A DNA stretch of 46,051 nucleotides from a virus (Duplodnaviria > Heunggongvirae > Uroviricota > Caudoviricetes), in IMG/VR virus record IMGVR_UViG_3300010275_000216; one strand, 5' to 3'. Within the stretch, counting starts at the first letter, position 1; every line of letters begins with the position of its first letter. Of the stretch, positions 26,520 through 46,051 are shown one piece after another. The notes under the pieces are model-generated. The model worked only from the letters and a program-made list of their open reading frames with translations. It searched no databases and had not been told where the DNA came from. The position numbers and the translations under genes are program-made.

Positions 26520-26690
26520 CATTTCCTCTTTTAGTCTGTTATGACTTTCCAGTTACACAGTAAGTCGATTATATGGTGCAAACGTGTAAAAGATAAGATG
26601 AAACATCGCAATAATCAACATACGATAGTCTAAATTTTACACAAACAGACAAAGAGAATTTTCCTGAATTATCAATACAATAGCATCAAA

Positions 26691-26921: not shown

Positions 26922-26964
26922 GATGTTACCGTAGTATGTGAGTATCCATCGAATAGACACCAAG

Positions 26965-26985
26965 CAAAAAAGCTCCCGAAGGAGC
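26965..26985 (-). terminator. terminator hairpin (GGCTCC-TTCG-GGAGC plus T6 on minus strand) about 200 nt downstream of cspI
   Basis: Read on minus strand. Confidence 0.45.
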
Positions 26986-27192
26986 CTTCATTTTCACTTT
27001 TTTAAATCCAACGACAGACGGCTGGCATTTAAGTATTGTGAAATATTATCAAATGTAATCATCATTGATTTACAAAAGATACATTTTGCCCCGAAAGGAT
27101 TCATGTCAGAAACATCAAAAGATGATGTTCTATACTGGGAACCATGACAACACGGGCATCTAAAGTGAATATGGTTTGTAATATTGTCTACC

Positions 27193-27405
27193 TCAAAGCG
27201 CCACTACATGAACAGCGGCAGGACCTTTAGGTCCGTTCTCAATACCAAATTCAACTTCCTGATTCTCAGTTAATGTTTTGAAATCGTTGCTCTGAATTGC
27301 TGAGAAATGGACAAACACATCTTTGCTGCCATCTTTCGGCGTGATGAAACCAAAACCTTTTTCAGGGTTAAACCATTTCACTAAACCAGTCATTTTGTTA
27401 GACAT
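27193..27405 (-). CDS. cspI: cold shock protein, CspA family (70 aa), CspI-like
   Basis: [23 protein letters not shown]...[12 protein letters not shown] motifs; long upstream leader as in cold-shock genes. Confidence 0.8.
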
Positions 27406-27765
27406 AATTATTACCTTTTGAAGAAATTAGCCCTTGGGCAGAATGGTCCGAAAAAAAATATCAGAGAGAAAAACCAACAAGGAAATCCCAAGAGGTACAA
27501 ATAATAAAATTATAACAATGACTGCTTCAGATAAATTTGTAACAAACCAGAACACCATTAACGCATGATTAACCACCCATAGCAAGGATTACTTTTGTAA
27601 AGAAAAATACAGCAATGAAAGAATAGCTTTATTTATTAATAAAACGTGTCATTCTGATTAAGACCTTTTCTTACCCTTAAGATTTCAGGAATTTTGGCTC
27701 ATGGAAGAGTCCTTTTTATTTAAATTTTACATTCCGCGATGTAAATGTTCCGATTTAATATTACC

Positions 27766-28789
<1,024 letters not shown>

Positions 28790-28793
<4 letters not shown>

Positions 28794-29101
28794 AGATATT
28801 TATGATGAGGACGCTCGTGCTTATTGGCAGGATTTTCAATCTTAAAGGAGTACTGATGCTGCAGATAAGACTCAACTTTTTCTGACAATTTTTCTGCTAC
28901 TTCCAGGAAGACTTGCCGGACGCTCCTTCTGGCTGCTGCCTCATAAAACTCCAGCGCAGCTCCTTCAACACGGTCCATGGCGACATCCAGGTCAAAAATT
29001 TCACCGTCAAAGCGTTCTTTGTCCTGTAAGGCTACAGTTACCGTAACTTTATTCTCAAAATTACGGACTCCTTTCACAACCAGTTCATAGTCTTGAGTCA
29101 T
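28790..29101 (-). CDS. ydfR: YdfR-like protein (103 aa) between holin and endolysin
   Basis: Same position (holin - ydfR - endolysin) and length as in Qin; overlaps endolysin start (ATGA). Confidence 0.55.
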
Positions 29102-29105
29102 TGGA

Positions 29106-29321
29106 TTACTCTCCTCTCGCAGCCTTACGCCTGTCTTCTTTAATCTTGAAATAAAGATTTGTCAGATACGTCAGCAGGCCAAAAACCAGGCTACCCAGCA
29201 CACCGATTGCAGCCCACTGTGACGGAGTTACTTTATCGAGTAACTGCAATGCCCAGAAACCAGCATTACCCGCCGATGTGCCATAGGCAACACCTGTTGT
29301 TAACTTATCCATTGATTTCAT
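29106..29321 (-). CDS. class II holin / pinholin, S21-like, with dual-start motif MKSMDK
   Basis: [26 protein letters not shown]...[30 protein letters not shown] closely matches phage 21 S as I recall it; GGTGAGG SD; ORF-track start is an upstream extension. Confidence 0.85.
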
Positions 29322-29540
29322 ATCCTCACCCCGATGTACACGGATGGTGCAATATGTTTGAAAAGATCGGAGTCTACGGGGTAGTTTTGACAGCACACGT
29401 TGTTCTCAACGGCGCTAAAAAAACATACACATTAAAAATGTGGGTAATTATTTTGAAAGAAAGTCATATATAAAATAATAATACGAGAAATGTTTTCATA
29501 TTTAGTGTACTGTATACGGCCATTTATACAGGAAAAGCCT

Positions 29541-29711
29541 ATGTCAGAACGTAAAGACTCAAAATCACGCCGTAATTATCTCGTTAAATGTTCCTGCCCA
29601 AACTGCACCCAAGAGTCAGAACACAGTTTTTCAAGAGTACAAAAAGGTGCCCTTTTGATCTGCCCTCATTGCAACAAAGTATTCCAGACAAATCTTAAAG
29701 CTGTAGCCTGA
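29541..29711 (+). CDS. small zinc-ribbon protein (56 aa, CPNC...CPHC)
   Basis: ATG with AGGAAAAG SD; two CxxC pairs. Confidence 0.5.
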   Translation: MSERKDSKSRRNYLVKCSCPNCTQESEHSFSRVQKGALLICPHCNKVFQTNLKAVA

Positions 29712-29775
29712 TTGATTTTATTAGTAACAAGTATTTTTTATATTTTAATAATATATTTAAAGCAGATAATAAAAA

Positions 29776-29791
29776 ACCCGCCTGAGCGGGT
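29776..29791. terminator. bidirectional terminator ACCCGCC-TGA-GCGGGT flanked by A6 and T3
   Basis: Between convergent zinc-ribbon gene and cspB. Confidence 0.55.
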
Positions 29792-30074
29792 TTGAGATTG
29801 TGGTGCTTTTTGTGGGAGTCATCCACTTACGCACTTTGTTTTGCGATGCCAGCAGTTAGCTTCTGCTGTGAAACTATTCATGCAGCAAACCTGCACTTCA
29901 CCACAATGGTTAGCATACTTTTCCTGATTAAGATTTTGCCAAATATGCTGGCCATTGTTTCATGTATTGGACCTCCTTACTTTTTATTAAAGAGATCCAA
30001 TATTCACTACTCTGTCCGTATCTCTACTCAGGCATCAGCCTTCTTCGTTATCGTATACAGACGAGCGATGAATT

Positions 30075-30290
30075 TTAATCAGTAATGATGACATTTACTG
30101 CTGCAGGACCTTTAGCACCACTCTCTATAGAGAAGGTAACCTTTTGACCTTCAAATAAGGTTCGATAATTATCATTCTGAATCGCAGAAAAATGCACAAA
30201 CACATCTTTACTACCATCAACAGGAGAAATAAAGCCGAAACCTTTATCAGCGTTAAACCATTTTACTAAACCAGTCATTTTATTTGACAT
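30075..30290 (-). CDS. cspB: cold shock protein CspB-like (71 aa)
   Basis: [23 protein letters not shown]...; divergent from cspF as in Qin. Confidence 0.8.
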
Positions 30291-30590
30291 TCTACATTCC
30301 TTAACTTGAGCCTTTCGGCATAAATGGTTTGCATAACAGAAACGACTTCGTACTTAATTGGAGAGACTCAAAGAAGGAATAAGTGAATAACACCTGAAAT
30401 GAGAACTGCTTTAGTAAACTACTTCGTATATCGTCTGTTCTTCAAACCGACGCAATCATTAACGCATAGTTGAACATATGAAGCAATGTTTATTTTAGAC
30501 ATCCAGCCATCTTCAACCCCATCAAAAAACTATAGCTTTCTTCAGGAACGTGTGTATAGTGCGCCAAGTTATCAGTATTAAGGAATTTTT

Positions 30591-30803
30591 TTGTCCCGTA
30601 AAATGACAGGGATTGTCAAAACCTTTGACGGCAAAAGCGGCAAGGGTCTTATCACCCCATCCGATGGTCGTATCGATGTCCAGCTTCATGTTTCAGCGCT
30701 CAATCTCCGCGATGCAGAAGAAATTACCACCGGATTACGCGTGGAATTTTGCCGGATAAATGGTCTGCGTGGCCCTTCAGCTGCCAATGTTTACCTTTCA
30801 TGA
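30591..30803 (+). CDS. cspF: cold shock protein CspF-like (70 aa), TTG start
   Basis: [23 protein letters not shown]...; divergent from cspB. Confidence 0.75.
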
Positions 30804-31095
30804 GCTATATTAAAGCTTTAATTTCAGGCCCCATCGGATCACACATGGAGAGTTTTTATGAATAACCCCGTCTGTCTTGATGACTGGTTGATTGGCTTTA
30901 AAAGCTTATGCTGTACTTTGGCCGTAATAGCTCTGCTAATAATATAATAAGCAGACTCATTGTGTTTAGGGACATTGTACTGGAAGAAAACATTTTAAAC
31001 ATCAGGCAAATAACCAAGTCACCAGCTAAATAATAAGTTAACAGACATGAGTCCCGGGATGAGATTCAACATTACCATTGCCCCATTTAAAGCAC

Positions 31096-31119
31096 AAAAC
31101 CCGCTCATCAGCGGGTTTT
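31096..31119 (+). terminator. terminator hairpin AAAACCCGC-TCATCA-GCGGGTTTT about 300 nt downstream of cspF
   Basis: GC stem followed by T-rich tract on plus strand. Confidence 0.5.
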
Positions 31120-31572
31120 CTACTTTTTCTTAACGTCGGGTATACAAAGCCCATCTTTGAAAAAATTTTATCCATATTTTTTGAAAAATGCAAGCATCAC
31201 GTTACCATCTTCATTGAAAAACCTTTATCGTGTTACTTTTATCAATTGCACTTCAGCATAGAGTTATCCCAGACAGCACTTTAAAGACTTCTACATTACA
31301 CACACCTTGTCTCCCCTTCTCGTCATATCTGCAAGACCGATATGCATGACGCAGTACATACGCTGAACTGCTTTATCCATCTGCATATTCTAGTGCTAAA
31401 GCGACTTCAGTAGCAGAAGCAAAATTCTGCTACTGTGCCAAACAGGAGTAAACGTCATTTTATGTAATATTGATTGAGTGGTCATAGTATCACCTCAATA
31501 ACAACTCTCCGCCCTATCATTGAAAGCATATCTGCTATAATTAAAAAACCACTTAACATCAGGACTTCAAAC

Positions 31573-31758
31573 ATGACTTCAAATCAATCTGAAAACGAAA
31601 TAGTTAATACTGTCAAAAAATATGCATCATGTGCTGACGATGCTTTGCAGGGAGGCAAAGAAAACGTTAAAGATAAATTTAGAAATTATCCACTGACTAG
31701 CGTGGTGGTTGCTCTAAGCATAGGGTTAACGCTTGGTTTTATTATTGGCAGAAAATAA
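31573..31758 (+). CDS. small tail-anchored membrane protein, DUF883 (ElaB/YqjD)-like C-terminus
   Basis: C-terminal ...NYPLTSVVVALSIGLTLGFIIGRK resembles the NPW...G..LG.L..R anchor of the ElaB/YqjD family; ATG at 31573. Confidence 0.35.
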   Translation: MTSNQSENEIVNTVKKYASCADDALQGGKENVKDKFRNYPLTSVVVALSIGLTLGFIIGRK

Positions 31759-32918
31759 TCTTAAGCCTCCCATAAGTCGTACACAATCACATCTGCCAAT
31801 TAATGTTCCATTAGTAAAAAACCACCTCCTGTGGAGGTGGTTTAAGGATAGCAACAAAACACAACCTACTTTAAACGGCTATATTCTGCTATATCTAAAT
31901 AATAGGATCTCTTTTATCATCCGGTGAAAAAGGGTTCAATGGTTGCCCCTCATCAGGACGCTCAACGGGCTCATCATCAGGCTTACGGTCATCAAAATCT
32001 GGATGTTCTGACATATTCCACCCTAGTATTTTCATGCAGGAAAGATTATTTACTCTTTCCGGTTGTCTTTTTTATTATCCTTACCCTTACTATCCTCATT
32101 GTTTTTATTCCTGTCATGAGATTTTTCATTTGAATCACTTACATATAATGTATTCATGGGGACTCCAGTTTTTTAACAGCACAATGCTGTATCTGTAATT
32201 ATAGATGCAATTAATCATTATGATATGTATGTTTCATGCACAAATCAGAAACGCATCTAGTGCTTTAATTAATATGGATTTTATTGCTGTAGATTTACAA
32301 AAATTTTCATAATTAACCAGCAATATAAGACAAATATCTCATAACATGAGGAAAATCAAGCTCATTTAAAGCAATTTATAATTTTCATCCTACTGTTTTC
32401 CCTGCACTGCCAACACAAGTTTCATCGCAACACTCTGACAAGACACCTATAAAATCAGTTTCGTTATCACCTTAATTTTCTTCATGGGTAACAAACCGGT
32501 AATACATCGATAGCCAGATTTCCGGCGTAAGCCATTTATTTGCAGCCTGATTGATGCGCGTTACTGTTACCTCTTCCCTGCATCAGGATGGCTTCTCCAG
32601 ATGATATGGTTAATCACACTGGAACATTCACGCATAACCGTTTCCTTCATATCCTGCCGTTTTAGCATGTCTTTTCCCCTTCTTGTTAATATCAATAACT
32701 AACACAAATCTAAAAAAGCCAGCAATGTAAAAAAACTGCATTCACGGCAACCATAATGGTTACCGTTCTGCACAAAGTTTATGTCCACAAAAAAACCACT
32801 CTGCGCGGCTTATTGATATTTTCCACAGGTATGCATATAAGGCTCATCATTGGAAAACTCTTTGCACGTTTCCTTAGAAAATACAATCGTTATGTCGCCA
32901 TCGTTCGGTGAAAATCAT

Positions 32919-33671
32919 TTATCTCGTCACTTTTCTTAATTGCACCTCAGCATATGCTTCTTCCTGCCAGCACTTTGTAACCAGTTTATCAATGACATCT
33001 GCATATCCTTTGTACCACTGATAATCCGTCAGGTCTGGTACCAGCTTCTGGACATGACACCGCGCCAGTGTCGTTGGTAAACGACTAAACCGGTTTCCAT
33101 TGCAACGCCCACAAACCTTATAAACAGGCGTGCTATGAAGCCGGGTTCTTTTTTCATCCAGGACAATACCTTTCCCCTTACACCCTCTGCACGCTGTGCT
33201 GACTTCTCCCTTACCATGGCAATGCTGACATAGTTCCTTCACCCACTCTTCCTTGATAACAGATTCCCCACTTCTGGAGTGTTTCACCACTTCGCGCAAT
33301 ACATTATGAAATCCAGTACCAGCACAATACTCACAGCGAGCCTTACTTGCCGCAGACCTGGAATAATCAGCAAAGGCAAAATTCACAAGGTAAGGGATGA
33401 TCTGTAACCGGATTTCTTCACTCAATTTGTTCAATGTCGGATTATCCATTGCCATCGCGTAATTGAGCAGACCTTCAATCGCAAACTGAGGATCCTGAAC
33501 ACCAACTTTTGCCAGGAATAAGGCAAAACCAAGCGGAGCTTTCGACTGCACCATCCCCTGCGCAGCCATCACATCTGTTATTGTTAAACCACCCGAGCCT
33601 GTCGCCGGTGCGTCATCACTCAATTTTGGAGATTTTGGGGAGTAATATTTTGGTAAAGCTTCAAGGTTCAT
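32919..33671 (-). CDS. quuQ: late-gene antitermination protein Q (250 aa)
   Basis: Length as QuuQ; multiple CxxC zinc-binding motifs; position upstream of lysis region. Confidence 0.75.
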   Translation of the reverse strand: MNLEALPKYYSPKSPKLSDDAPATGSGGLTITDVMAAQGMVQSKAPLGFALFLAKVGVQDPQFAIEGLLNYAMAMDNPTLNKLSEEIRLQIIPYLVNFAFADYSRSAASKARCEYCAGTGFHNVLREVVKHSRSGESVIKEEWVKELCQHCHGKGEVSTACRGCKGKGIVLDEKRTRLHSTPVYKVCGRCNGNRFSRLPTTLARCHVQKLVPDLTDYQWYKGYADVIDKLVTKCWQEEAYAEVQLRKVTR

Positions 33672-33684
33672 GCTCGTTCTCCAC

Positions 33685-34734
33685 TTACGCCAGTACGCCT
33701 ATTGCCAGCGCACGATCGATAAAACGAAATATCAGCTCCAGTTGGGAGCCATACTTCTCTTCAAATGCCACGGTATTCGCATGCAGCTCGTCGTGATGCT
33801 TTCTGCACAAAGGCAACACAAAGAGATCATGTGCTTTGGTTCCCATTCCGCCCTGCCCGTGACCAATCAGATGATGCGGATCGTCGGCTGGCATACCGCA
33901 GCAAGCACACGGCTGTGTCTTAACCCAGCGTGTGTATTTCTCCTTAACCCAACGGTGACGTTTAGGCAGCTTCATGAAAGATTCCGGAGACTCTGGATCA
34001 ACGGTGATGCTTACCACCGTCTTTTCCTGTGATGGGTTTTGTTGCTGGTGGGCGTGAGGCAACGGTGCAAGATTTTTTGTGCGCTGTTTCAATATGCTGG
34101 TGGCGGTCTGCTCTCCCGGTACGATGTCGCTTTCGCGGTACACCGAGCAGTTTTTTTCCGCTGGTAATCCCAGCGAGCGACGTAATACCGCTTCCGGTAG
34201 CGCGTCCGCCACCTGATTGCGGACCGCCCACCAGGATAATTCAGCCAGAGATAATTCACGCTCCTGCGTACCGCTTATTGCGTGACCGATGACGTCAATC
34301 ATCCATGCTGACAGGTTTTGATGAGCAAGTTGCTCGAGTGATTCGGATGTCTGGTCACGCAGCTGGTTGTCGCAGTGCCAGCACAACACCATTGCGCCGG
34401 TACCATAACGGTGAATAACGGTTTCACTGTGATGATAATCGCCGTGTGGCCACTGGCAGGATTTAATATGGCGCAACAGCCAGTCAGACAATGCACCAGC
34501 ACCACCAGCAGCACGAATTACCCGTGCGTTACTGAAAAACGGCAGCAATGTTTTGTCTTCCACCAGCGGCTGGCGAACGGCAGGAACGACCCCGGACGGC
34601 AGATTACGCATGCTTTTCGGTTCCGGCTCCACCAGTACCCGGGTATTGTGGAATACCGGCATGGATTCACGGCCCGGCTTAACGACCACCAGCCCGAGTT
34701 CCGGTACCAGAACAGGTCGAAGTAATACCCGCAC
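33685..34734 (-). CDS. ydfU: DUF968-family protein YdfU-like (349 aa), GTG start
   Basis: Same length and position (just before Q) as ydfU of Qin; C-terminal Cys/His-rich motif CACCG...HHLIGHG...CRKHHDELH. Confidence 0.6.
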   Translation of the reverse strand: MRVLLRPVLVPELGLVVVKPGRESMPVFHNTRVLVEPEPKSMRNLPSGVVPAVRQPLVEDKTLLPFFSNARVIRAAGGAGALSDWLLRHIKSCQWPHGDYHHSETVIHRYGTGAMVLCWHCDNQLRDQTSESLEQLAHQNLSAWMIDVIGHAISGTQERELSLAELSWWAVRNQVADALPEAVLRRSLGLPAEKNCSVYRESDIVPGEQTATSILKQRTKNLAPLPHAHQQQNPSQEKTVVSITVDPESPESFMKLPKRHRWVKEKYTRWVKTQPCACCGMPADDPHHLIGHGQGGMGTKAHDLFVLPLCRKHHDELHANTVAFEEKYGSQLELIFRFIDRALAIGVLA

Positions 34735-34735
34735 G

Positions 34736-35014
34736 TTACCTCCAGATGCGTTGCTGGAATGTACGGGACGGACGCGGTGGGCGTTCGGAGTAAGGCAATC
34801 TGACTGAGATTATCCAGTGACGGTAGTCGAGACTAAGGGCTTTCTTAACCTCGTATCCGCGCCTGCGGTAACACTGAATTATCCATTCAGCCTGCTCTTC
34901 AGTGCATGGAGGGTGCTGGAACCATTCAGACTTGAATGCGTGAGAATACCGCTCGTGCGTGCAGGCAAGAACGGGCGAATTATCAGAATTGTAATATTTT
35001 ACGTTGCGTGCCAT
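34736..35014 (-). CDS. hypothetical protein (92 aa)
   Basis: ATG with GGAG SD; stop abuts ydfU start. Confidence 0.45.
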   Translation of the reverse strand: MARNVKYYNSDNSPVLACTHERYSHAFKSEWFQHPPCTEEQAEWIIQCYRRRGYEVKKALSLDYRHWIISVRLPYSERPPRPSRTFQQRIWR

Positions 35015-35080
35015 CGGTTTTCTCCGGTGGCACGGTGTTACTCAGCGGGAGTTCAGCCCCGCGCAAGATTGTAGATGAGT

Positions 35081-35332
35081 TTATTCTTCTGCAAAAGCTG
35101 AAAAGCCTGCTTTTATTCCGATCTCTTTCAGTGCCTGTAATGAAGTGACAAACTCACCTTCGCGCAAGATAAATCCGTCTGTCACTCGACCATCCACAAA
35201 ATTAATTAACGCAGCCCCATTCTTTCGCAAACACATAATGCGGTAATGACTAACAAGATTTCCATTTTCAACGCACACAGCATAGAGGCCATCTTCACAA
35301 AAAATTTTACGCAGTTCTTCGATGTTCATCAT
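35081..35332 (-). CDS. hypothetical protein (83 aa), Rem-like by length and position
   Basis: ATGATG start with GGAAGGA SD; located between hok and ydfU where rem lies in Qin. Confidence 0.4.
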   Translation of the reverse strand: MMNIEELRKIFCEDGLYAVCVENGNLVSHYRIMCLRKNGAALINFVDGRVTDGFILREGEFVTSLQALKEIGIKAGFSAFAEE

Positions 35333-35462
35333 CAGAATCCTTCCGGATAATTAGCTCTCCCCTTTAAGGGACCATCCCTCTTATCCCTGCGCGCTACTTA
35401 AGTATTTTTGATTCTATTCCGGCACCGTCCAGAACTTCAAACGCGTTGAAAATAAAAACAAA

Positions 35463-35480
35463 AACCCGCCGAAGCGGGTT
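35463..35480 (-). terminator. terminator AACCCGC-TTCG-GCGGGTT plus T-run downstream of hok
   Basis: Read on minus strand about 70 nt after hok stop; a second hairpin GGCGAGGGA-TTTC-TCCCTCGCC at about 35520-35543 directly follows the stop. Confidence 0.55.
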
Positions 35481-35548
35481 AAGTGCGGGTGCGTTGAGGA
35501 TGCCTGCCACATCAGAGGTGGCGAGGGATTTCTCCCTCGCCGGGTCTC

Positions 35549-35704
35549 TTACTCCTCAGGTTCGTAAGCTGTGAAGACAGCGACCTCCGTCTGGCCGGTT
35601 CGGATTCGTACCTCGCAGAGGTCTTTCCTCGTTACCAGTGCCGTCACTATGACGGTTAAACAAATGACGATCAGGGCGATTAACATCGCCTTTTGCTGCT
35701 TCAT
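35549..35704 (-). CDS. hokD: Hok-family type I toxin (51 aa), HokD/RelF-like
   Basis: MKQQKAMLIALIVICLTVIVTALVTRKDLCEVRIRTGQTEVAVFTAYEPEE; AGGAG SD. Confidence 0.85.
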   Translation of the reverse strand: MKQQKAMLIALIVICLTVIVTALVTRKDLCEVRIRTGQTEVAVFTAYEPEE

Positions 35705-35900
35705 AGCCTGCTTCTCCTTGCCTTTCGGCACGTAAGAGGCTAACCTACATGTGTCTAGCATGAAATTGGCCTCAGATTAATGTTAAGCGTCTTGCAGGAC
35801 GCGTAATGTTAACTGGGGCTTTTCTCTATCTGCCGTTGGTGTTCATGCCCGAGGCAGATAGCCTCAAGCACCCGCAGCCATTCTACTTAACTACCGTTAC
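35705..35900. promoter_or_regulatory. hok leader region: in-frame 19-codon upstream extension (mok-like) and candidate antisense Sok-type RNA on plus strand
   Basis: ORF-track 70-aa form starts at ATG 35761; plus-strand promoter-like TTGCCT-17-TAACCT at about 35717-35745 oriented antisense to hok; inference only. Confidence 0.3.
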
Positions 35901-36319
35901 CTCGCCAATATGAAATCAATCAGTAAGGTGATCCATAAGAACAATAACAAGACAATAAATTGCCATTACAGCCACAATAGCCAGCGTGCATTTGAGAACC
36001 AGCACATAAATCTCCTGCTCTTGACGTATACAGGCACTGATAAATATGTGTCTTCGTGCTCGTTACTTCAATACGTAAGCGTCAGTTGCGCGTAATCAAA
36101 TCAGACAACCGACTTTAAACCAGGGACAAACAGCAGGTAAAATAATCAAACGTTATTTTAAGCCATATCATGGCTTCAAGATTTCCTCTAATTTCAACAA
36201 GATGAGCAGGTCATTGCTTGCACTGATGACCTGCTCATTAATCATGATTATTTGAAAATTAAGGTAGGCGTACTATATATAGAAACACTGCTACGCTCCG
36301 TTGTTGGCATAATATAAAA

Positions 36320-37006
36320 TCATTCCTGCCCTTCTTTACCGTAGTGGAGTTGACCAATTTTGATTAGAGGGCGTCCCTGAGATTTGCGGTGTAGATTGGT
36401 ATCGCGCAGTGAATACACGCAGCCACAATATTCCTGCTGATAGAATTGTTCGCGCTTGCTGATTTCAATCATGCGGGAAGAGCCGCCCTGCTTTCGCCAG
36501 TTATAATCCCAGTACACCATGCCCGGATAATACGCGACGGCTCGCCGTCCACAGTCGTTAACCTGCTGCATATTTTTCCAGCGTGAAATGCCCAGTGAGC
36601 TACTGATCACACTGAAACCATTTTCAGCGGCATACAGCGCAGTCCGCTCAAAACGCATGTCAAAACACATGGTACAACGGATCCCTCGTTCAGGCTCCCA
36701 TTCCATTCCTTTGGCTCGCTCAAACCAGTTGTCTGTGTCGTAATCAGCATCAATAAATGGCACGCCGTGTTGTTTAGCAAAGCGAATATTCTCATCCTTA
36801 CGAATTAAATACTCTTTCTGAGGATGAATGTTCGGGTTGTAGAAAAAGATGGTGTAGTCGATTCCCGAGGCCTGAAGCGCCTCCATCACTTCACCGGAAC
36901 ATGGAGCACAGCAAGAGTGCAGTAATAGTTTTTTTGCCCCGTTTGGGAGCTCCAATTTGGGGCGTTTGAAATCAGCAACAGTCATAAATGTGTTTATGAG
37001 GTTCAT
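36320..37006 (-). CDS. queH: QueH-like epoxyqueuosine reductase (DUF208)
   Basis: N-terminal [13 protein letters not shown], later CTMCFDMRF and QEYCGC motifs typical of DUF208/QueH; start uncertain (ATG 37006 or 36985, ORF-track GTG 37099), no clear SD. Confidence 0.55.
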
Positions 37007-37038
37007 GAAAATAGCAAAAAGTGTAGCATCAGAACGGG

Positions 37039-37341
37039 CTATCGGAAACAGATGTCTAAATCTGGTAATGTCTGCTTTTGATGCAAAGCAGACAACCACG
37101 GCAGCGCACGAAAATCAGCGATAATGTCGGGATTAATAATCGGGTGACGTCCATCACATAGCGAATGTTCCTCTTTCCTGATATCGCTAAATATCGACCA
37201 TTCGTCATTCTTATCGAACCAGAGCATGCGACTGCCACAGCACATGTCGAGAATGGTAGCCGATGTACTCACAGCATCACCTCCCGATAATTCCCCTGAT
37301 AAAACGTCAGAACACGCTGCATAACTTCGCTCTTCCGGCAC
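37039..37341 (-). CDS. doubtful ORF (100 aa, GTG start) overlapping neighbours in other frames; possibly remnant of a frameshifted gene
   Basis: No SD at any candidate start; overlaps 3' end of the 140-aa gene and 5' region of the QueH-like ORF. Confidence 0.2.
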
Positions 37342-37691
37342 TCGCGACAGATTATGTTTAGACGACTGTCGTAGCGGCGTATTTCTCCATCAGGTAATGA
37401 CCAGATAAGGTCCGGATCAACCACAGCAGGTTTCTTCACCTTTGCCCTCGAGAGTTTTTTGCGGGCGTTTTGCCAGTCCTTACGCGCCTGTTCAGACGGG
37501 AATAACCCGTAGCCGGAGTTGTATACATCGCCACTGGCTACCAGCTCTCTGGCAAGAACGCTCATCAGATATCTAGTCGCACCTGTTTTAGCTTCCAGTT
37601 GCCGTAACGTCTCACGACCGCTCTGGCGCACGAGTTCCACCACCTGCCCTTTAATTTTTTCCCGCTCTTCTTGTGTAAAAACTTTTGCCAC
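37269..37691 (-). CDS. hypothetical early-region protein (140 aa), GTG start
   Basis: GTG preceded by strong SD AAGGGGGA; follows replication gene. Confidence 0.5.
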   Translation of the reverse strand: MAKVFTQEEREKIKGQVVELVRQSGRETLRQLEAKTGATRYLMSVLARELVASGDVYNSGYGLFPSEQARKDWQNARKKLSRAKVKKPAVVDPDLIWSLPDGEIRRYDSRLNIICRECRKSEVMQRVLTFYQGNYREVML

Positions 37692-37731
37692 AAGTCCCCC
37701 TTAAAATTACCTCATGACCTGAAATCAACAT

Positions 37732-38697
37732 TTATCCTCTGAAACCAGGCGGAATTTCTGTATCCGGTTCAGAAATATGATTAACACAACGCTGTACAGG
37801 TGAACGTCCCAGGCGGATGACCAGTTCGTCCCATTTTTCGCGGAGCTTTGACGGGCTCATGATGTTTTTTACCCAGAATGGATCTCGCTGAACCCGACCA
37901 AACATTTCGCAAATTTGTCTGTGGCTTCTGCCATCCAGCATCCGCATTGTGCGCACGTCATTGGCCCAGGCAGTCCAGTTAGGCTCTTTTGGTCGCATGA
38001 TCTCGCCATCATCACTGGCTGCCTGTTCGTAGAGACCCACGATCCGCCCCCAGATCCACTGCGCACACGCCAAATCCTCCCTGCTACCCCACTGGCTTTT
38101 TTTCGCACTAAACACAACCGCGTCGGAGTTCCGGGTTAAAAAATCCTGTTCAGTCGTCTGCGGGTCCGGTTGCGAAGCTTCCGGACGAAAAGTGTTTTTA
38201 TTCTCTGTAGTAATCTCTGTTGTATTCTCTGTAAGATCATCAGGCCATTTTGACCCGATGACATTGGATCGTTTTGAACCAATGGAGCGTTTCATTTTGA
38301 CCTCTTCCATCGTGTCATTTTGACCTGATGGAGCGGCGCATTTTGAACCGATGGATTCGCTCAATTTGCCATCATCTAAAAGCTCGCTCTCGTAGTTGAT
38401 CGTGTAGAAATTGGTCATATCGCGCTTTGATTTATTGAGCTTTTCACAACGCAAAAGCCCCAGCTTTTTCAGACTTGCAAACGCGCGCTTTAACGTTGAC
38501 TCTGACCAGAATGGGAACTGTTCCAGCCATTGTTCCGTTGTGTTGTAAATCCAGCGAACACCATCACATTCCATGCCGGAATTGGTATCTCTCAACCAGT
38601 AATGCAACTGCTGCAACACAATGGCTTCATTTAAGCCAATCTTCATCGCAAGCTGTGTGTTTATAACCAGTGGGCGTTCAGCAAAAAGAAGGCTCAT
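37732..38697 (-). CDS. putative phage replication initiation / replisome organizer protein (O-like, about 321 aa)
   Basis: N-terminal winged-helix-like region, position downstream of cro-like/cII-like genes; ORF-track TTG start replaced by ATG 38697. Confidence 0.5.
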   Translation of the reverse strand: MSLLFAERPLVINTQLAMKIGLNEAIVLQQLHYWLRDTNSGMECDGVRWIYNTTEQWLEQFPFWSESTLKRAFASLKKLGLLRCEKLNKSKRDMTNFYTINYESELLDDGKLSESIGSKCAAPSGQNDTMEEVKMKRSIGSKRSNVIGSKWPDDLTENTTEITTENKNTFRPEASQPDPQTTEQDFLTRNSDAVVFSAKKSQWGSREDLACAQWIWGRIVGLYEQAASDDGEIMRPKEPNWTAWANDVRTMRMLDGRSHRQICEMFGRVQRDPFWVKNIMSPSKLREKWDELVIRLGRSPVQRCVNHISEPDTEIPPGFRG

Positions 38698-39199
38698 AAT
38701 TCCATCCAGCTTTTTGTTGGTATTGCTGTCGATACGCAAGTTTGAAAGCAATTGCTTTTTCTATAAGTTCGTCAGTTTCACGATCCACTACGGCAGGATC
38801 AGCAAAAAGCAGTCCGGACTCCACCACATCGCCATATTCTTTGTTTAACCCGGCGATCATGTACGTGATGCTTTTTCCGTCACTAATTTCACGATACAAC
38901 CTGAAATCATTAATCCGGATAGCCTCCATAATTGCAGGCACTAGCGCCGTGAACTTTTCACGCTTATCCCTGGTGTCGATAGCCTTCCAGCGTTCGAATA
39001 TCTTCACTCGATTAACGCCAAGCGCTCGCTGATCAACCGCGCCACCTTCATCTGTGACACGCTGAACATCGATGTTCGGGCGCTCTTTCAAAGCCCAGAA
39101 TGCTTCAGTGATTAATATCGTCGCCTGCTCCTGTGTCATTCCTGGTCGACATATCCAGGCATCCAGAGCCTCACGAGCCTGTTCAGGAGTGATTTTCAT
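38678..39199 (-). CDS. early regulatory protein (173 aa), YdaT/cII-position
   Basis: Immediately follows cro-like gene with overlap; family assignment uncertain. Confidence 0.4.
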   Translation of the reverse strand: MKITPEQAREALDAWICRPGMTQEQATILITEAFWALKERPNIDVQRVTDEGGAVDQRALGVNRVKIFERWKAIDTRDKREKFTALVPAIMEAIRINDFRLYREISDGKSITYMIAGLNKEYGDVVESGLLFADPAVVDRETDELIEKAIAFKLAYRQQYQQKAGWNYEPSFC

Positions 39200-39410
39200 T
39201 GTTCAACCGCCCCGCCCGCTTCGTCTTACGATATTCGTCATAAACCTTGGGATCATACTGAAGCTCGCCGCCAGATGCCTCCTGTAGACGCATCGCGCGA
39301 CCTTCAGGAACCAGCTCTTGCCATTGAGAAACAGCAGATGGGTCAACGCCAGCAGCTTTCGCTACTTTGGCTTTCGTACCGTAAAAATTAATTACGTCTG
39401 ATTTAAACAT
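39183..39410 (-). CDS. dicC: Cro-like HTH regulator, DicC/YdaS family (75 aa)
   Basis: FYGTKAKVAKAAGVDPSAVSQW...SGGELQYDPKVY HTH; ATG 39410 with GGAGGTG SD; divergent from dicA-like repressor. Confidence 0.7.
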   Translation of the reverse strand: MFKSDVINFYGTKAKVAKAAGVDPSAVSQWQELVPEGRAMRLQEASGGELQYDPKVYDEYRKTKRAGRLNNENHS

Positions 39411-39419
39411 CGCACCTCC

Positions 39420-39440
39420 AATATTGAGTTTTCTCAATAC
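39420..39440. promoter_or_regulatory. operator-like inverted repeat TATTGAG-TTTT-CTCAATA in the dicC-dicA intergenic region
   Basis: Perfect 7-bp inverted repeat between divergent repressor and cro-like genes. Confidence 0.55.
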
Positions 39441-39487
39441 TAATCACTCAAGGAATCTCAAGTCAAGGGTTATTAAGATATCTAAAT

Positions 39488-39895
39488 ATGAACGAGAAAA
39501 CTTTAGGTCAACGCATTAGAGAAAGACGTAAGCAGGTAGGCTTAAGTCAAAACGGTTTAAGCAAAGCTGCTGGCGTATCTGGCTCATCAATTTCATTATG
39601 GGAAAGTGACCATACAGCCCCGCGCGGGCAAAATTTGCATCGCCTCGCCGAGGTATTACAATGTTCACCAACCTGGATACTGTTTGGCGACGAGGACAAA
39701 ACACCAGCTCCCCCTGTTTCACTCGATAGTGCCTTAGACTTATCGGAAGATGAGTTAGAGATGCTGCGTTTGTATCGTGCACTTCCTAAATCAGAGCAAC
39801 AAGCACAACTCAGCGAACTCCGCGCCCGCGTTGAGAATTTTAATCGCCTGTTCACCGAGCTATTAGAGGCTCGCAAACGCAACAAGCATCAATAA
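39488..39895 (+). CDS. dicA: prophage repressor DicA (XRE-family HTH, 135 aa)
   Basis: 135 aa; ...QVGLSQNGLSKAAGVSGSSISLWE... HTH and ...LQCSPTWILFGDEDK... segment as DicA. Confidence 0.85.
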   Translation: MNEKTLGQRIRERRKQVGLSQNGLSKAAGVSGSSISLWESDHTAPRGQNLHRLAEVLQCSPTWILFGDEDKTPAPPVSLDSALDLSEDELEMLRLYRALPKSEQQAQLSELRARVENFNRLFTELLEARKRNKHQ

Positions 39896-39956
39896 TCATC
39901 CCTTCACAAAATTTTAAAGCCTTACATTTCAATGTATTGGCTTTATCTTGCGTCAA

Positions 39957-39973
39957 TACTTGAGTTTTCTCAT
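39957..39973. promoter_or_regulatory. second copy of the operator core TTGAGTTTTCTCA, upstream of ydfA; partial inverted copy TGAGAAAACT at about 39997-40006
   Basis: 13-mer identical to the core of the 39420-39440 site. Confidence 0.45.
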
Positions 39974-40087
39974 CAAAAAACCTTGACGAAAAATAATGAG
40001 AAAACTAAATTACCTCCATCAAGACACCGCACGGTGTTCTCAGCAAACAGTTCCGCTACCCCGGCGTTAAGGGGAAATGAGGTCAGC

Positions 40088-40243
40088 ATGGATACTATCG
40101 ATCTTGGCAACAACGAATCTCTGGTATGTGGCGTGTTCCCCAACCAGGACGGCACGTTCACCGCGATGACGTATACCAAAAGCAAAACGTTTAAAACCGA
40201 AAATGGTGCCCGTCGCTGGCTGGAAAGAAACTCAGGTGAGTGA
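40088..40243 (+). CDS. ydfA: YdfA-like small protein (51 aa)
   Basis: MDTIDLGNNESLVCGVFPNQDGTFTAMTYTKSKTFKTENGARRWLERNSGE; ATG with GAGG SD. Confidence 0.7.
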   Translation: MDTIDLGNNESLVCGVFPNQDGTFTAMTYTKSKTFKTENGARRWLERNSGE

Positions 40244-40244
40244 T

Positions 40245-40820
40245 ATGGATTTCGACACAATCATGGAAAAGGCTTACGAAGAATACTTCGAAGGCCTTGC
40301 CGAAGGCGAAGAAGCTCTCAGCTTCAGTGAGTTTAAACAGGCACTCAGAATAAGAATGTGCTCTCACAATGACGCAGAGCACAAATATGAGAAGCAAAAT
40401 CAGACCGCAGAAAATTTTGTTCTGGAACCCGGAGAAACGCTTTTCAAAATTCCCGTTACGTGCCCCATTTGCGGTTTTACATCAGAAGAACTTGACGACT
40501 CCTGTAACAATCAGGAAACAACCAAGTATGTCGAAGATGATACCGAGTGCGCACGAAGAACGATTATATCCACGAGTCCAAACTCCAGGACCAATAAATC
40601 TCACTTTGAGAGGGTGATTAATCCACTCCCCCAAACCAATAAAAAAGATGCCGGAGGACAAAAAACCCAATGGAACAACGGGATATCTGTCAAAAAAAGA
40701 CGTTCCATTAAAGACAAACAACGCAGCGCCAACAACTGTAAGCGCTTTATTCCAGTAATCAATTTTCATGTTCTTAAGCGGATTTATTGGTGGTTGCGAC
40801 ATTGCTTAATGAATCCTTAA
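40245..40820 (+). CDS. YdfB/YdfC-region protein as a single 191-aa ORF
   Basis: Starts MDFDTIMEKAYEEYFEGLAEGEE (ydfB-like) and continues uninterrupted; contains CPICGF. Confidence 0.5.
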   Translation: MDFDTIMEKAYEEYFEGLAEGEEALSFSEFKQALRIRMCSHNDAEHKYEKQNQTAENFVLEPGETLFKIPVTCPICGFTSEELDDSCNNQETTKYVEDDTECARRTIISTSPNSRTNKSHFERVINPLPQTNKKDAGGQKTQWNNGISVKKRRSIKDKQRSANNCKRFIPVINFHVLKRIYWWLRHCLMNP

Positions 40821-41079
40821 AACTGTGGTGATTTTAAGGATACCACCTCGCCTGACGTGGTTAAAAGCAGGCACACAACACGAAAGCGCACGGCGAAGTT
40901 CGTCTCACTGTACGGTGTCGTTAAATTTAATTCGACCGTGCGCTTCCGGTTGTGGCAACCCGCGAAATGGCGCGGCGGTAAGTATGGCGGGGTTATTCCT
41001 TCCCCGTAGAGGACACCGAGTTGTCAGGTTGACCATACGCTTAAGTGACAACCCCGCTGCAACGCCCTCTGTTATCAAT

Positions 41080-41137
41080 TTTCTGGTGACGTTTGGCGGT
41101 ATCAGTTTTACTCCGTGACTGCTCTGCCGCCGTTTTT
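41080..41137 (+). ncRNA. dicF: DicF small RNA (ftsZ-targeting sRNA of the dicB operon) with terminator U-tract
   Basis: TTTCTGGTGACGTTTGGCGGTATCAGTTTTACTCCGTGACTGCTCTGCCGCCGTTTTT matches the DicF sequence as I recall it over 52 of 53 nt; correct operon position between ydfBC and dicB. Confidence 0.8.
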
Positions 41138-41306
41138 AAAGTGAGTTTTGTGATGCGGTGAATGCGGCTAAGCGCACGCGGAACAGTTAAAACCAAAAAC
41201 AGTGTTATGGGTGGATTCTCTGTATCCGGCGTTAATTGTTAACTGGTTAACGTCACCTGGAGGCACCAGGCACTGCATCACAAAATTCATTGTTGAGGAC
41301 GCGATA

Positions 41307-41495
41307 ATGAAAACGTTATTACCAAACGTTAATACGTCTGAAGGTTGTTTTGAAATTGGTGTCACTATCAGTAACCCTGTATTTACTGAAGATGCCATTA
41401 ACAAGAGAAAACAAGAACGGGAGCTATTAAATAAAATATGCATTGTTTCAATGCTGGCTCGTTTACGTCTGATGCCAAAAGGATGTGCACAATGA
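41307..41495 (+). CDS. dicB: cell division inhibitor DicB (62 aa)
   Basis: MKTLLPNVNTSEGCFEIGVTISNPVFTEDAINKRKQERELLNKICIVSMLARLRLMPKGCAQ. Confidence 0.85.
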   Translation: MKTLLPNVNTSEGCFEIGVTISNPVFTEDAINKRKQERELLNKICIVSMLARLRLMPKGCAQ

Positions 41496-41683
41496 ATTCA
41501 GCATTTGCGCTTGTTCTGACAGTTTTTCTTGTTTCCGGAGAGCCAGTTGATATTGCAGTCAGTGTTCACAGGACAATGCAGGAGTGTATGACTGCAGCAA
41601 CCGAACAGAAAATTCCCGGTAACTGTTACCCGGTCGATAAAGTTATTCACCAGGATAATATCGAAATCCCGGCAGGTCTTTAA
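41492..41683 (+). CDS. ydfD: YdfD-like small membrane/lysis protein (63 aa)
   Basis: MNSAFALVLTVFLVSGEPVDIAVSVHRTMQECMTAATEQKIPGNCYPVDKVIHQDNIEIPAGL; start overlaps dicB stop. Confidence 0.75.
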   Translation: MNSAFALVLTVFLVSGEPVDIAVSVHRTMQECMTAATEQKIPGNCYPVDKVIHQDNIEIPAGL

Positions 41684-41776
41684 AACAGTTCCGTAATAAA
41701 TATCCGGTTTCATTCTTATATGCCAGCAATAGCAGGGATTTGTTCATCCTTAAATCTGTCATGAGGTTAAAACAAA

Positions 41777-44248
41777 ATGAGTAAAGTCTTTATTTGCGCC
41801 GCTATTCCTGACGAACTGGCAACAAGGGAAGAAGGCGCTGTGGCTGTAGCCACAGCCATTGAAGCTGGCGACGAACGCCGTGCTCGAGCAAAATTTCACT
41901 GGCAGTTCCTGGAACATTATCCGGCTGCTCAGGACTGCGCTTATAAATTTATTGTCTGCGAGGATAAACCTGGCATACCCCGCCCTGCCCTCGATTCATG
42001 GGATGCTGAATATATGCAGGAAAACCGCTGGGATGAGGAGTCTGCTTCTTTTGTCCCGGTTGAGACTGAATCCGATCCGATGAACGTCACTTTTGACAAG
42101 CTGGCCCCTGAAGTACAGAACGCTGTCATGGTTAAGTTCGACACATGTGAAAACATCACCGTTGATATGGTTATTAGCGCACAGGAATTGTTGCAGGAAG
42201 ACATGGCAACATTCGACGGACATATCGTTGAAGCGTTGATGAAAATGCCAGAAGTTAACGCCATGTATCCGGAGCTTAAGTTGCACGCCATTGGGTGGGT
42301 TAAGCATAAATGTATTCCTGGTGCTAAATGGCCCGAAATTCAGGCAGAGATGCGCATCTGGAAAAAACGTCGCGAAGGTGAACGCAAGGAAACCGGAAAA
42401 TACACGTCTGTTGTTGATCTCGCCCGCGCCAGAGCCAATCAACAGTACACTGAAAATTCAACAGGAAAAATCAGCCCGGTCATTGCTGCCATTCATCGCG
42501 AATACAAGCAGACATGGAAAACACTGGATGACGAACTGGCCTACGCTCTCTGGCCTGGTGATGTGGATGCCGGAAACATTGACGGCAGCATCCATCGCTG
42601 GGCAAAAAAAGAAGTTATCGACAACGACCGCGAAGACTGGAAGCGTATCTCGGCATCAATGCGCAAACAGCCTGATGCCCTTCGCTACGACCGCCAGACT
42701 ATTTTTGGCCTTGTCCGTGAGCGTCCGATCGACATTCACAAAGATCCCATAGCACTGAACAAATATATCTGCGAATACCTGACGACAAAGGGCGTGTTTG
42801 AGAATGAAGAAACAGACCTGGGCACTGTTGATGTTCTCCAGTCATCAGAAACACAAACTGATGCAGTGGAAACTGAGGTATCTGATATCCCAAAAAATGA
42901 AACCGCGCCGGAAGCTGAACCATCTGTAGAGCGTGAGGGGCCGTTCTATTTCCTCTTCGCAGATAAGGACGGAGAAAAATACGGTCGCGCAAACAAACTT
43001 TCTGGTCTGGATAAGGCACTGGCTGCTGGCGCCACTGAAATCACAAAAGAAGAATATTTTGCCCGAAAAAATGGCACATACACGGGCTTACCGCAAAATG
43101 TAGATACCGCTGAAGATTCAGAACAACCAGAGCCGATAAAAGTTACCGCTGACGAAGTAAACAAAATTATGCAGGCAGCCAATATCAGCCAGCCTGACGC
43201 CGATAAGTTGCTTGCTGCATCACGTGGTGAATTTGTTGAAGGGATTAGTGACCCGAATGATCCGAAATGGGTTAAGGGGATCCAGACCCGCGATTCTGTG
43301 AACCAGAACCAGCATGAATCGGAACGGAACTACCAAAAAGCGGAACAAAACAGCACAAATGCGTTACAAAACGAGCCAGAAACGAAACAGCCTGAACCAG
43401 TGGCGCAACAGGAAGTGGAAAAAGTCTGCACCGCCTGCGGTCAGACCGGCGGCGGCAACTGCCCTGATTGTGGCGCGGTGATGGGCGACGCAACATACCA
43501 AGAAACATTCGATGAAGAGTATCAGGTTGAAGTTCAGGAAGATGATCCGGAGGAAATGGAAGGCGCTGAACATCCACACAAGGAGAACACTGGCGGCAAT
43601 CAGCATCACAATAGCGATAATGAAACTGGCGAGACGGCAGATCACTCAATTAAGGTGAACGGTCATCACGAAATCACATCCACCAGCAGGACGTGTGACC
43701 ATCTAATGATCGACCTTGAAACCATGGGAAAAAATCCTGATGCCCCGATCATCTCAATAGGTGCAATATTTTTCGATCCGCAAACCGGAGATATGGGACC
43801 GGAATTTAGTAAGACTATCGATCTGGAAACTGCTGGCGGAGTCATTGATCGGGACACCATTAAATGGTGGCTTAAGCAATCACGCGAAGCGCAATCTGCC
43901 ATTATGACCGATGAAATCCCGTTAGATGATGCACTGTTACAATTGCGGGAATTTATCGACGAAAACTCCGGTGAATTTTTTGTTCAGGTTTGGGGAAATG
44001 GAGCCAACTTCGACAACACGATTTTGCGCCGTTCATACGAACGGCAGGGGATCCCCTGCCCGTGGCGTTACTACAACGATCGCGATGTACGCACAATCGT
44101 TGAGCTGGGGAAAGCCATAGACTTCGATGCCAGAACGGCTATTCCATTCGAAGGTGAGCGCCATAATGCACTTGATGACGCCCGTTACCAGGCAAAATAC
44201 GTTTCAGTTATCTGGCAAAAACTGATCCCGAGTCAGGCTGATTCTTAA
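41777..44248 (+). CDS. large early protein (823 aa): YdfE-like N-terminal region, central zinc ribbon, C-terminal DnaQ-like DEDDh 3'-5' exonuclease domain
   Basis: C-terminal motifs MIDLETMG (Exo I), WGNGANFDNTIL (Exo II), HNALDDARY (Exo III); CTACGQTGGGNCPDCG zinc ribbon; position after ydfD. Confidence 0.7.
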   Translation: MSKVFICAAIPDELATREEGAVAVATAIEAGDERRARAKFHWQFLEHYPAAQDCAYKFIVCEDKPGIPRPALDSWDAEYMQENRWDEESASFVPVETESDPMNVTFDKLAPEVQNAVMVKFDTCENITVDMVISAQELLQEDMATFDGHIVEALMKMPEVNAMYPELKLHAIGWVKHKCIPGAKWPEIQAEMRIWKKRREGERKETGKYTSVVDLARARANQQYTENSTGKISPVIAAIHREYKQTWKTLDDELAYALWPGDVDAGNIDGSIHRWAKKEVIDNDREDWKRISASMRKQPDALRYDRQTIFGLVRERPIDIHKDPIALNKYICEYLTTKGVFENEETDLGTVDVLQSSETQTDAVETEVSDIPKNETAPEAEPSVEREGPFYFLFADKDGEKYGRANKLSGLDKALAAGATEITKEEYFARKNGTYTGLPQNVDTAEDSEQPEPIKVTADEVNKIMQAANISQPDADKLLAASRGEFVEGISDPNDPKWVKGIQTRDSVNQNQHESERNYQKAEQNSTNALQNEPETKQPEPVAQQEVEKVCTACGQTGGGNCPDCGAVMGDATYQETFDEEYQVEVQEDDPEEMEGAEHPHKENTGGNQHHNSDNETGETADHSIKVNGHHEITSTSRTCDHLMIDLETMGKNPDAPIISIGAIFFDPQTGDMGPEFSKTIDLETAGGVIDRDTIKWWLKQSREAQSAIMTDEIPLDDALLQLREFIDENSGEFFVQVWGNGANFDNTILRRSYERQGIPCPWRYYNDRDVRTIVELGKAIDFDARTAIPFEGERHNALDDARYQAKYVSVIWQKLIPSQADS

Positions 44249-44320
44249 TGTTCAACTGTCGCCGGTTGTGACTGGTATTCTGCAACCGGCGCTCGTCTGA
44301 TGTAAGAGATAAAGAAATCG

Positions 44321-44572
44321 ATGAGCGAAGTAATCATGATTGTCTCTCCCGGCAAATGGGTATCCGAAGAGCAGTTAATTGCGCTGAAAGGAATAAAAAA
44401 AGGTACGTTAAAAAAGGCCCGGGAAAAATCGTTTATGGAAGGAAGGGAATATAAGCATGTCGCTCATGACGGTATGCCATGGGATAACAGTCCATGCTTT
44501 TACAACCTGGAAGAAATTGATCGCTGGATTGAGCGCCAGGCATCAGCGAGACCAAGACGTCATCTTACTTGA
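44321..44572 (+). CDS. xis: putative excisionase / DNA-binding protein (83 aa)
   Basis: Small gene immediately upstream of and co-oriented with integrase. Confidence 0.5.
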   Translation: MSEVIMIVSPGKWVSEEQLIALKGIKKGTLKKAREKSFMEGREYKHVAHDGMPWDNSPCFYNLEEIDRWIERQASARPRRHLT

Positions 44573-44606
44573 CTAAAAGCCACACTAACTAATGAGAGAA
44601 GTTGAA

Positions 44607-45887: not shown

Positions 45888-46051
45888 TTTAATATTTATC
45901 AAATAGTTGACACGTATGACTCTTGAAATCCATAAATTCAAGCGCAGTGCCCAACCATCCCGATACTGCTGCTTTCACCAAATCCTTAGTACTTCTTTCG
46001 TGTTTTTCTATTGTCATAATGGTTATCTCTAAAAAAGAGGTAAGATGCGTA

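Follow-up and report, generated by a model that had tools for sequence, protein, structure and literature searches.

In Escherichia coli, epoxyqueuosine (oQ) is made on transfer RNA (tRNA) by QueA, and it accumulates when B12 is lacking; the bacterium has no de novo B12 synthesis. The cobamide dependence of oQ reduction in E. coli is said to have been described by Frey et al. in 1988. A cobalamin-independent epoxyqueuosine reductase, QueH (DUF208, PF02677, COG1636), was reportedly discovered by Zallot et al. in 2017 (as cited in PMC5372724 and PMC9508795), and crystal structures of the Thermotoga maritima enzyme are held in the PDB as 7LC5, 7LC7 and 9DEU. The other reductase, QueG, requires cobalamin (PMC5175355).

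The present analysis concerns a queH gene carried by a 46,051-nucleotide stretch of viral DNA (IMG/VR record IMGVR_UViG_3300010275_000216, Caudoviricetes), which is referred to here, at its full length, as the window. The original prediction, made from the sequence alone, had proposed a QueH/DUF208 epoxyqueuosine reductase in the early region of a lambdoid prophage, and this assignment is upheld by the hidden Markov model (HMM) match, the predicted cysteine ligands and fold, the orthology and the phage context. The gene probably encodes a functional QueH, captured from a housekeeping locus and retained as a moron, through which the lysogen would gain an oQ to Q step that needs no cobalamin. 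The coding sequence, its leader and the three motifs of the family are located as follows.

36320..36985, minus strand: queH coding sequence (full-length PF02677 match, call by the Prokaryotic Genome Annotation Pipeline (PGAP), match to PDB 7lc5, allele comparison)
36986..37100, minus strand: non-coding leader travelling with queH (block common to four prophage contexts; indel and stop in other alleles)
36896..36919, minus strand: HSCCAPCS motif, amino acids 23-30, with Cys25, Cys26 and Cys29 (motif search, alignment)
36650..36676, minus strand: CTMCFDMRF motif, amino acids 104-112, with Cys104 and Cys107 (motif search, alignment)
36419..36430, minus strand: YCGC motif, amino acids 186-189, with Cys187 and Cys189 (motif search, alignment)

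The open reading frame (ORF) and its motifs are real, far beyond what chance would give. The Pfam profile PF02677 (QueH) matches the product at E 4.3e-65 with 219.5 bits (cut-off 23.5), covering profile positions 1-174 of 175, and the crystallised T. maritima QueH (PDB 7LC5) is matched by sequence at E 8e-22. All three motifs on which the original prediction was built (HSCCAPCS, CxxCFxxRF and YCGC) are present, the middle one as CTMCFDMRF. For the ligand alignment, the window protein and the T. maritima enzyme were set beside 19 gammaproteobacterial homologues; six cysteines (25, 26, 104, 107, 187 and 189) are invariant in all 21 sequences and align with Cys9, 10, 87, 90, 169 and 171 of T. maritima. 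These cysteines, belonging to the CCAP, CxxC and CGC motifs, are presumably the binders of a [4Fe-4S] cluster and an adjacent iron, the ligand roles reported for the 7LC5 structure. When an AlphaFold2 model of the protein was compared with the PDB by Foldseek, the top five matches were all T. maritima QueH (target TM score 0.80-0.82, root-mean-square deviation 2.8-3.1 Å), followed by the much weaker PP-loop enzymes LarE and TtuA (E about 1e-5). The profile search, the inspection of the cysteine ligands and the structure prediction, all of which had been put forward as checks along with the prediction, came out in its favour. The protein shares 80-90% amino acid identity with QueH of Providencia, Proteus, Photorhabdus, Erwinia, Gibbsiella, Enterobacter and Citrobacter, and in Providencia queH lies in a core chromosomal neighbourhood with tmcA, purC and bamC. 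Judged from sequence, the ORF is almost certainly an intact QueH, a member of the epoxyqueuosine reductase family.

The extent of the gene is shorter than first proposed. The original prediction had assigned it positions 36320-37099, where the minus strand does hold an ORF, of 259 amino acids when counted from a GTG at 37099, but the upper 114 nt are non-coding and the coding sequence proper starts at the ATG at 36985, giving 221 amino acids plus the stop codon. The PGAP coding sequence WP_021568046.1, named 'epoxyqueuosine reductase QueH' in NZ_CP019455.1, has coordinates identical to 36320-36985 (-). In the GPEC657 allele, which is the most divergent of those in E. coli, the frame 5' of the conserved ATG holds an ATT in place of the window's upstream ATG and then a TAA stop; the Klebsiella copies likewise have ATT at that position, and a 1-nt indel between the window and ST131 leaders breaks the upstream frame. 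Because of this stop, the ATT and the indel in other alleles, the interval 36986-37100 is regarded as leader and not as coding sequence. Both longer versions, the 259-aa ORF starting at GTG (37099) and a 228-aa form starting at ATG (37006), were rejected on these allele grounds.

The leader contains a short element whose conservation in leaders makes it a candidate promoter.

37020..37028, minus strand: TGCTACACT, candidate extended -10 promoter element, 34 nt 5' of the ATG (conservation in leaders)

Conservation was followed in 80 IMG/VR viral contigs, chosen by a QueH at least 96% identical. The element TGCTACACT is kept in every one of these 80 leaders, together with about 70 nt of leader next to the ATG, whatever stands further upstream. 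It is also kept in the Rac-type and Klebsiella IncF plasmid copies, while a chromosomal locus of Enterobacter type shows TGCTACAAT there. The TGnTACACT element may thus be an extended -10 promoter that moves with the gene. An Rfam search of the leader for a preQ1 or other riboswitch, at E<=1, returned only sok and sub-threshold noise. A perfect 10-bp inverted repeat, TGTCTGCTTTGCATCAAAAGCAGACA, was also seen at 37068-37093 (-), some 45 nt 5' of the candidate -10 element, with the arrangement TGTCTGCTTT-GCATCA-AAAGCAGACA. The sequence of this palindrome survives in part in the leaders of MS 85-1 and of the Klebsiella plasmids. Its arms are not kept complementary in ST131, and a conserved RNA hairpin is unsupported on that ground; the palindrome may be a protein-binding site.

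Of 5426 complete E. coli genomes, 995 contain the queH coding sequence, nearly always as a single chromosomal copy; at least 80% of it is present in 985 genomes, and every match listed is annotated as QueH. The queG gene is present in all 5426, and in strain REL606 both genes are intact. The protein recorded as 'MULTISPECIES: QueH [Escherichia]' occurs on at least 1000 contigs. To speak of an unexpected cargo, as the original prediction did, is overstated for a gene of this frequency, which occurs alongside queG and whose product RefSeq already names QueH. Prophage alleles differ by up to 6-8% at the DNA level with the protein hardly changed: the ratio of nonsynonymous to synonymous substitution (dN/dS) between them is 0.05-0.09, with dS up to 0.27 (Nei-Gojobori), and none of the six alleles translated has a broken reading frame. 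The queH alleles are, on these ratios, under strong purifying selection. The low dN/dS, together with the 985 genomes retaining at least 80% of the coding sequence, indicates that the gene is functional and not decaying.

Carriage of queH extends to plasmids. About 200 plasmids in PLSDB, mostly conjugative, carry the gene at 60-95% DNA identity, 99 of them in Klebsiella, 67 in Escherichia and 23 in Acinetobacter. For instance, in two Klebsiella pneumoniae IncF plasmids (loci L014 and L015, queH at 5987-6655 in each), the gene lies near repA among ordinary plasmid cargo. The leaders of the Klebsiella IncF plasmid copies align with the prophage leader. This bears on an effect of the gene on host tRNA that the original prediction had placed during induction: such a timing may be too narrow, as the same cassette and leader on conjugative plasmids point to a benefit for the bacterial host.

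The element that carries the gene in the window is a prophage of the Qin type.

113..45940, no strand assigned: complete Qin-type lambdoid prophage in ydfJ (annotation of NZ_CP019455.1, collinearity with HannyBb)

Over positions 36000-37700 the window matches E. coli FHI_NMBU_03 (NZ_CP019455.1) at 100% identity, and the annotation used for the window is that of the corresponding 46-kb stretch of this genome, placed by the same match and comprising 60 annotated features. The annotated prophage spans from integrase to tail fibre. Its gene order begins with integrase, exonuclease, dicB, a DicA-like repressor, Cro, YdaT, an O-like gene and DUF977 (lygF), after which come a truncated methyltransferase, queH, hokD/sok, rem, ydfU, the Q antiterminator, lysis genes, and head and tail genes. 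This order bears out the predicted location, with hok on one flank and the replication genes on the other, hokD/sok being at 35549-35873 and DUF977, the O-like gene, YdaT and Cro upstream. About 40 kb are collinear with the deposited genome of Escherichia phage HannyBb, and the prophage ends (about 113 and 45940) converge at HannyBb 24078/24092. An exact att core repeat was not found, and the limits of the prophage rest on the HannyBb comparison. Because of this collinearity and of the ends meeting at one HannyBb point, the carrier of queH has the look of a viable temperate phage. REL606 (E. coli B), E. coli C and ATCC 8739 have this region too, at 99.6% identity.

Other cargo of possible relevance to translation or nucleobases was recorded along the way. 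Within the window, tRNA genes and other translation-related cargo were looked for and none were found. In two other queH prophages, tRNA genes follow the late-gene antiterminator region: those for Arg and Ile in ST131 (L004 1985-2237), and those for Gly and Thr in the Rac-type prophage (L007 3244-3397). In the Qin prophage of REL606, between Q and the lysis genes (L001 2597-4817), there are genes of the YbgA family and the 2-thiouracil desulfurase family, both disrupted by IS3, with a lipocalin gene beside the pair; this second nucleobase-related cargo is missing from the window.

Three neighbours mark the position of queH in the window.

37269..37691, minus strand: DUF977 / LygF ('Ren-like') gene, last of the replication module, constant upstream neighbour (PF06163, E 4.7e-29)
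37087..37272, minus strand: truncated pseudogene of a DNA methyltransferase, reduced to its 5' part and flanking the cassette upstream (PGAP 'incomplete, missing C-terminus')
35549..35873, minus strand: hokD/mok toxin gene with sok antisense RNA, usual downstream neighbour (HOK_GEF, E 3e-23; Rfam sok, 115 bits)

Four sampled contexts were compared, namely ST131 strain 751, O157:H7 Z1814, MS 85-1 and the Rac-type prophage in GPEC657. The block common to four prophage contexts, whose immunity and replication modules are unrelated, corresponds to window 36314-37100. In all four sampled contexts queH directly follows DUF977, the gene that closes the replication module, despite differing repressors and replication genes. 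A probe joining queH and DUF977 was covered to at least 80% in 957 of the complete E. coli genomes; it had been suggested that homologous prophages be searched for the gene at this position, and the adjacency is thus widespread among them. In the IMG/VR viral contigs, DUF977 stands upstream of queH in 75 of 80 and hok downstream in 68 of 80. Phages PhiR42_1 and mEp460 and Rac-type phages that share lygF have no queH block. In other words, the gene is a discrete cassette, variably present between conserved modules of related phages, which is the mark of a moron.

The upstream junction of the cassette can be read from its flank. The original prediction had spoken of adjoining ORFs of uncertain integrity, and the methyltransferase pseudogene at 37087-37272 answers to that description, its PHROG and PADLOC methyltransferase matches covering the N-terminal part only. 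In phage PhiR42_1 an intact 357-nt methyltransferase gene follows lygF, and homology to the window ends at about 37106. This comparison indicates that, in the window prophage, the cassette has taken the place of the 3' part of the methyltransferase gene.

The contents of the slot differ from one prophage to another. K-12 Qin has relBE upstream of hokD (L097 4347-4873), O157:H7 Z1814 has a NgoMIV-type restriction enzyme and a cytosine methyltransferase beside queH (L005 4806-6816), and MS 85-1 has a KwaB-like protein with a partner beside it (L006 5153-6792). Because a restriction-modification system, a KwaB-like pair and relBE are found there, the slot between DUF977 and hokD is a general cargo and defence hotspot.

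Downstream of queH, a stable hairpin was recorded.

36196..36240, minus strand: stable 13-bp hairpin, about 80 nt past the queH stop (RNA fold -26.9 kcal/mol, z -3.7)

The run of T behind this hairpin is poor and the terminator scan made no call, so that it is at most a possible weak or bidirectional terminator. It sits in a 375-nt segment, 35939-36313, present in the window and in Rac-type loci and absent from ST131- and O157-type loci. The same segment holds a 13-codon ORF, MCWFSNARWLLWL, at 35966-36007 (-) with a strong GGAGA ribosome-binding site ahead of it, which could encode a leader or toxin-like peptide or be a chance occurrence. Just 3' of hokD, at 35459-35540 (-), Rfam gives a sub-threshold match to the Hfq-binding small RNA isrK (25.7 bits against a gathering cut-off of 50, E 0.007).

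Taken as a mechanism, the favoured reading runs as follows. QueH would act as a cobalamin-independent iron-sulfur enzyme that reduces oQ to Q at position 34 of tRNA-Asp, tRNA-Asn, tRNA-His and tRNA-Tyr. A housekeeping queH of another member of the Enterobacterales would have been captured, with some 70-115 nt of its own leader, into the lambdoid cargo slot and retained there as a moron, allowing the lysogen to finish the oQ to Q conversion without corrinoids, that is, by lysogenic conversion. Since queH reads in the same direction as the early-right operon, induction would be expected to transcribe it as well. Lysogenic conversion is the likeliest selected effect because every E. coli has the B12-dependent QueG and lacks de novo B12 synthesis. 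We infer catalytic activity, expression from the TGnTACACT element and a B12-sparing benefit; the whole, a functional captured housekeeping QueH serving the lysogen, is considered probable.

Several observations weigh against this reading. The sigma-70 scan that requires both hexamers did not call TGCTACACT, and no Shine-Dalgarno sequence precedes either ATG (36985 or 37006). At the position of T. maritima Asp13, which we take to be the third ligand of the extra mononuclear iron, the window protein has Cys29, as do all 24 gammaproteobacterial homologues aligned; the PDB contains a D13N mutant of the T. maritima enzyme (9DCO), which fits a ligand role for Asp13, and Cys29 is plausibly an equivalent iron ligand. 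The AlphaFold2 model is of moderate confidence only, with a predicted local distance difference test score (pLDDT) of 71 and a predicted template modelling score (pTM) of 0.73. The NCBIfam scan of the protein gave zero matches, but this was given no weight against Pfam, the PDB and PGAP. Roughly 18% of the complete E. coli genomes have the gene in its fixed lambdoid slot, with E. coli B (REL606), E. coli C and strains of ST131 and O157 among them, and this prevalence may be inflated by clonal over-sampling (ST131, O157). Additionally, we know of no phenotype that separates oQ from Q, and the size of a benefit is hard to gauge.

The best-surviving alternative sees queH as a lytic auxiliary gene, whose early-right expression after induction would top up Q in tRNA and help the translation of phage genes, which are slightly richer in NAU codons. 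It can point to the orientation of queH, which is that of cro, ydaT, O and DUF977 with no terminator called in between, and to codon usage: NAU makes up a fraction of 0.586 of the Asn, Asp, His and Tyr codons in prophage genes (0.60 in late ones), compared with 0.526 in a host sample of 49 kb. However, this difference is too small to build a lytic role on, and the same cassette is maintained on IncF plasmids, which have no lytic phase. The leader and the promoter-like motif in it stay conserved regardless of upstream sequence, and little would seem to be gained by modifying a stable pool of tRNA in the course of a single latent period. To our knowledge, no difference in decoding between oQ and Q has been described, which also counts against this explanation. 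Altogether it is unlikely as the sole role. A host-level benefit fits better than a purely lytic-cycle role, because of the non-lytic plasmid carriage, the self-contained leader and the strong purifying selection, and the two roles are not exclusive.

The company that queH keeps suggests a second alternative, in which it is a conflict gene and the oQ/Q state of the four tRNAs with GUN anticodons serves as a lever, for example by shielding the tRNAs of the lysogen against an anticodon nuclease or by skewing translation to the disadvantage of a superinfecting phage when corrinoids are scarce. The NgoMIV-type restriction-modification system in O157 Z1814, the KwaB-like pair in MS 85-1, relBE in K-12 and hok/sok in the window all share the slot, and PHROGs list the neighbour DUF977 as a 'Ren-like exclusion protein'. 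Yet PADLOC has no match for QueH or for its intact neighbours, only the methyltransferase remnant matching methyltransferase models; QueH proteins of ordinary housekeeping type are 80-90% identical to this one, the four sampled contexts show no partner gene that co-varies with queH, and hotspots gather plain metabolic morons as well. This explanation is accordingly rated as improbable, a good deal below the lytic one.

A 7-deazaguanine-related function, which the original prediction had raised as another option, found no support. In its specific form, QueH would act on a substrate other than tRNA, for example in 7-deazaguanine modification of phage DNA, a use of pathway genes for which there is general precedent only (PMC6884629). 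Neither a transglycosylase resembling DpdA or tRNA-guanine transglycosylase (TGT) nor folE, queD, queE or queC occurs among the 60 annotated features of the prophage, a Pfam scan of the queH neighbours gave no match to DpdA/TGT or preQ0 synthesis, and the prophage carries no tRNA genes. The substrate oQ, moreover, arises on tRNA through QueA. In the DNA-modifying viruses analysed by Hutinet et al. 2019 (PMC6884629), no QueA, QueG or QueH was present. The explanation is very improbable. An equally slight chance is left to a functionless, decaying hitch-hiker, a remnant like the methyltransferase it adjoins in an often-rearranged region, given the frame intact in six of six alleles, the dN/dS of 0.05-0.09, the 985 genomes with at least 80% of the coding sequence and the retention of all ligand residues. 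A 2012 in-silico link between DUF208 and Holliday-junction genes (PMC3403352) concerns gene neighbourhood only and was not taken as a rival.

What the favoured reading, a captured QueH that serves the lysogen, would mean reaches beyond this prophage. The B12-independent last queuosine step is mobile in Enterobacteriaceae, and in E. coli queH always comes on top of the core queG and is under strong purifying selection; completion of oQ to Q is thereby implied to matter for fitness under corrinoid limitation. In B12-free media, the Q/oQ status of tRNA may not be the same in laboratory strains of E. coli B as in those of K-12. The gene is under-annotated in phage databases: PHROG 3217, which the protein matches at E 5e-135, bears the label 'unknown function', its profile beginning at Met34, past the CCAPC motif, and the HannyBb copy (PP925841.1 33011-33697) is recorded as a 'hypothetical protein' with the 228-aa start. 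In the searchable literature, leaving the QueH discovery paper outside that scope, nothing was found on prophage- or plasmid-borne QueH in E. coli.

Compared with known systems, the gene is of an already known kind, as its family is biochemically and structurally characterised and this exact protein is named QueH in RefSeq. It is the population picture, of a mobile gene in a fixed slot beside queG and under purifying selection, that is worth keeping, and not the gene itself. With T. maritima QueH the window protein shares the full-length domain, the six cysteines, the fold and a similar size (221 aa here and 192 aa there); it differs in having Cys for Asp13 and a basic C-terminal tail of about 25 aa, both of which are found in all gammaproteobacterial homologues aligned. 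Unlike chromosomal QueH, it is encoded on a temperate phage in a host that already has QueG. QueG is predicted to perform the same reaction on the same substrate (oQ34-tRNA to Q34-tRNA), and the two genes occur in the same cells, but the enzymes have unrelated folds and cofactors, QueG being B12-dependent, and queG is core whereas queH is accessory (995 of 5426).

The phage 7-deazaguanine clusters built on DpdA with FolE, QueD, QueE and QueC (PMC6884629) resemble this locus in placing a queuosine-pathway gene on a phage genome. In contrast to them, the window is without their defining genes, and QueH acts after insertion into tRNA. The lambdoid morons, such as relBE-hokD in Qin of K-12, stand nearer: they have in common with queH the slot, the variable presence, the conserved ends of the cassette and a candidate promoter of their own. 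What sets queH apart from them is its cargo, which is a tRNA-modification enzyme and not a toxin, a defence gene or a virulence factor.

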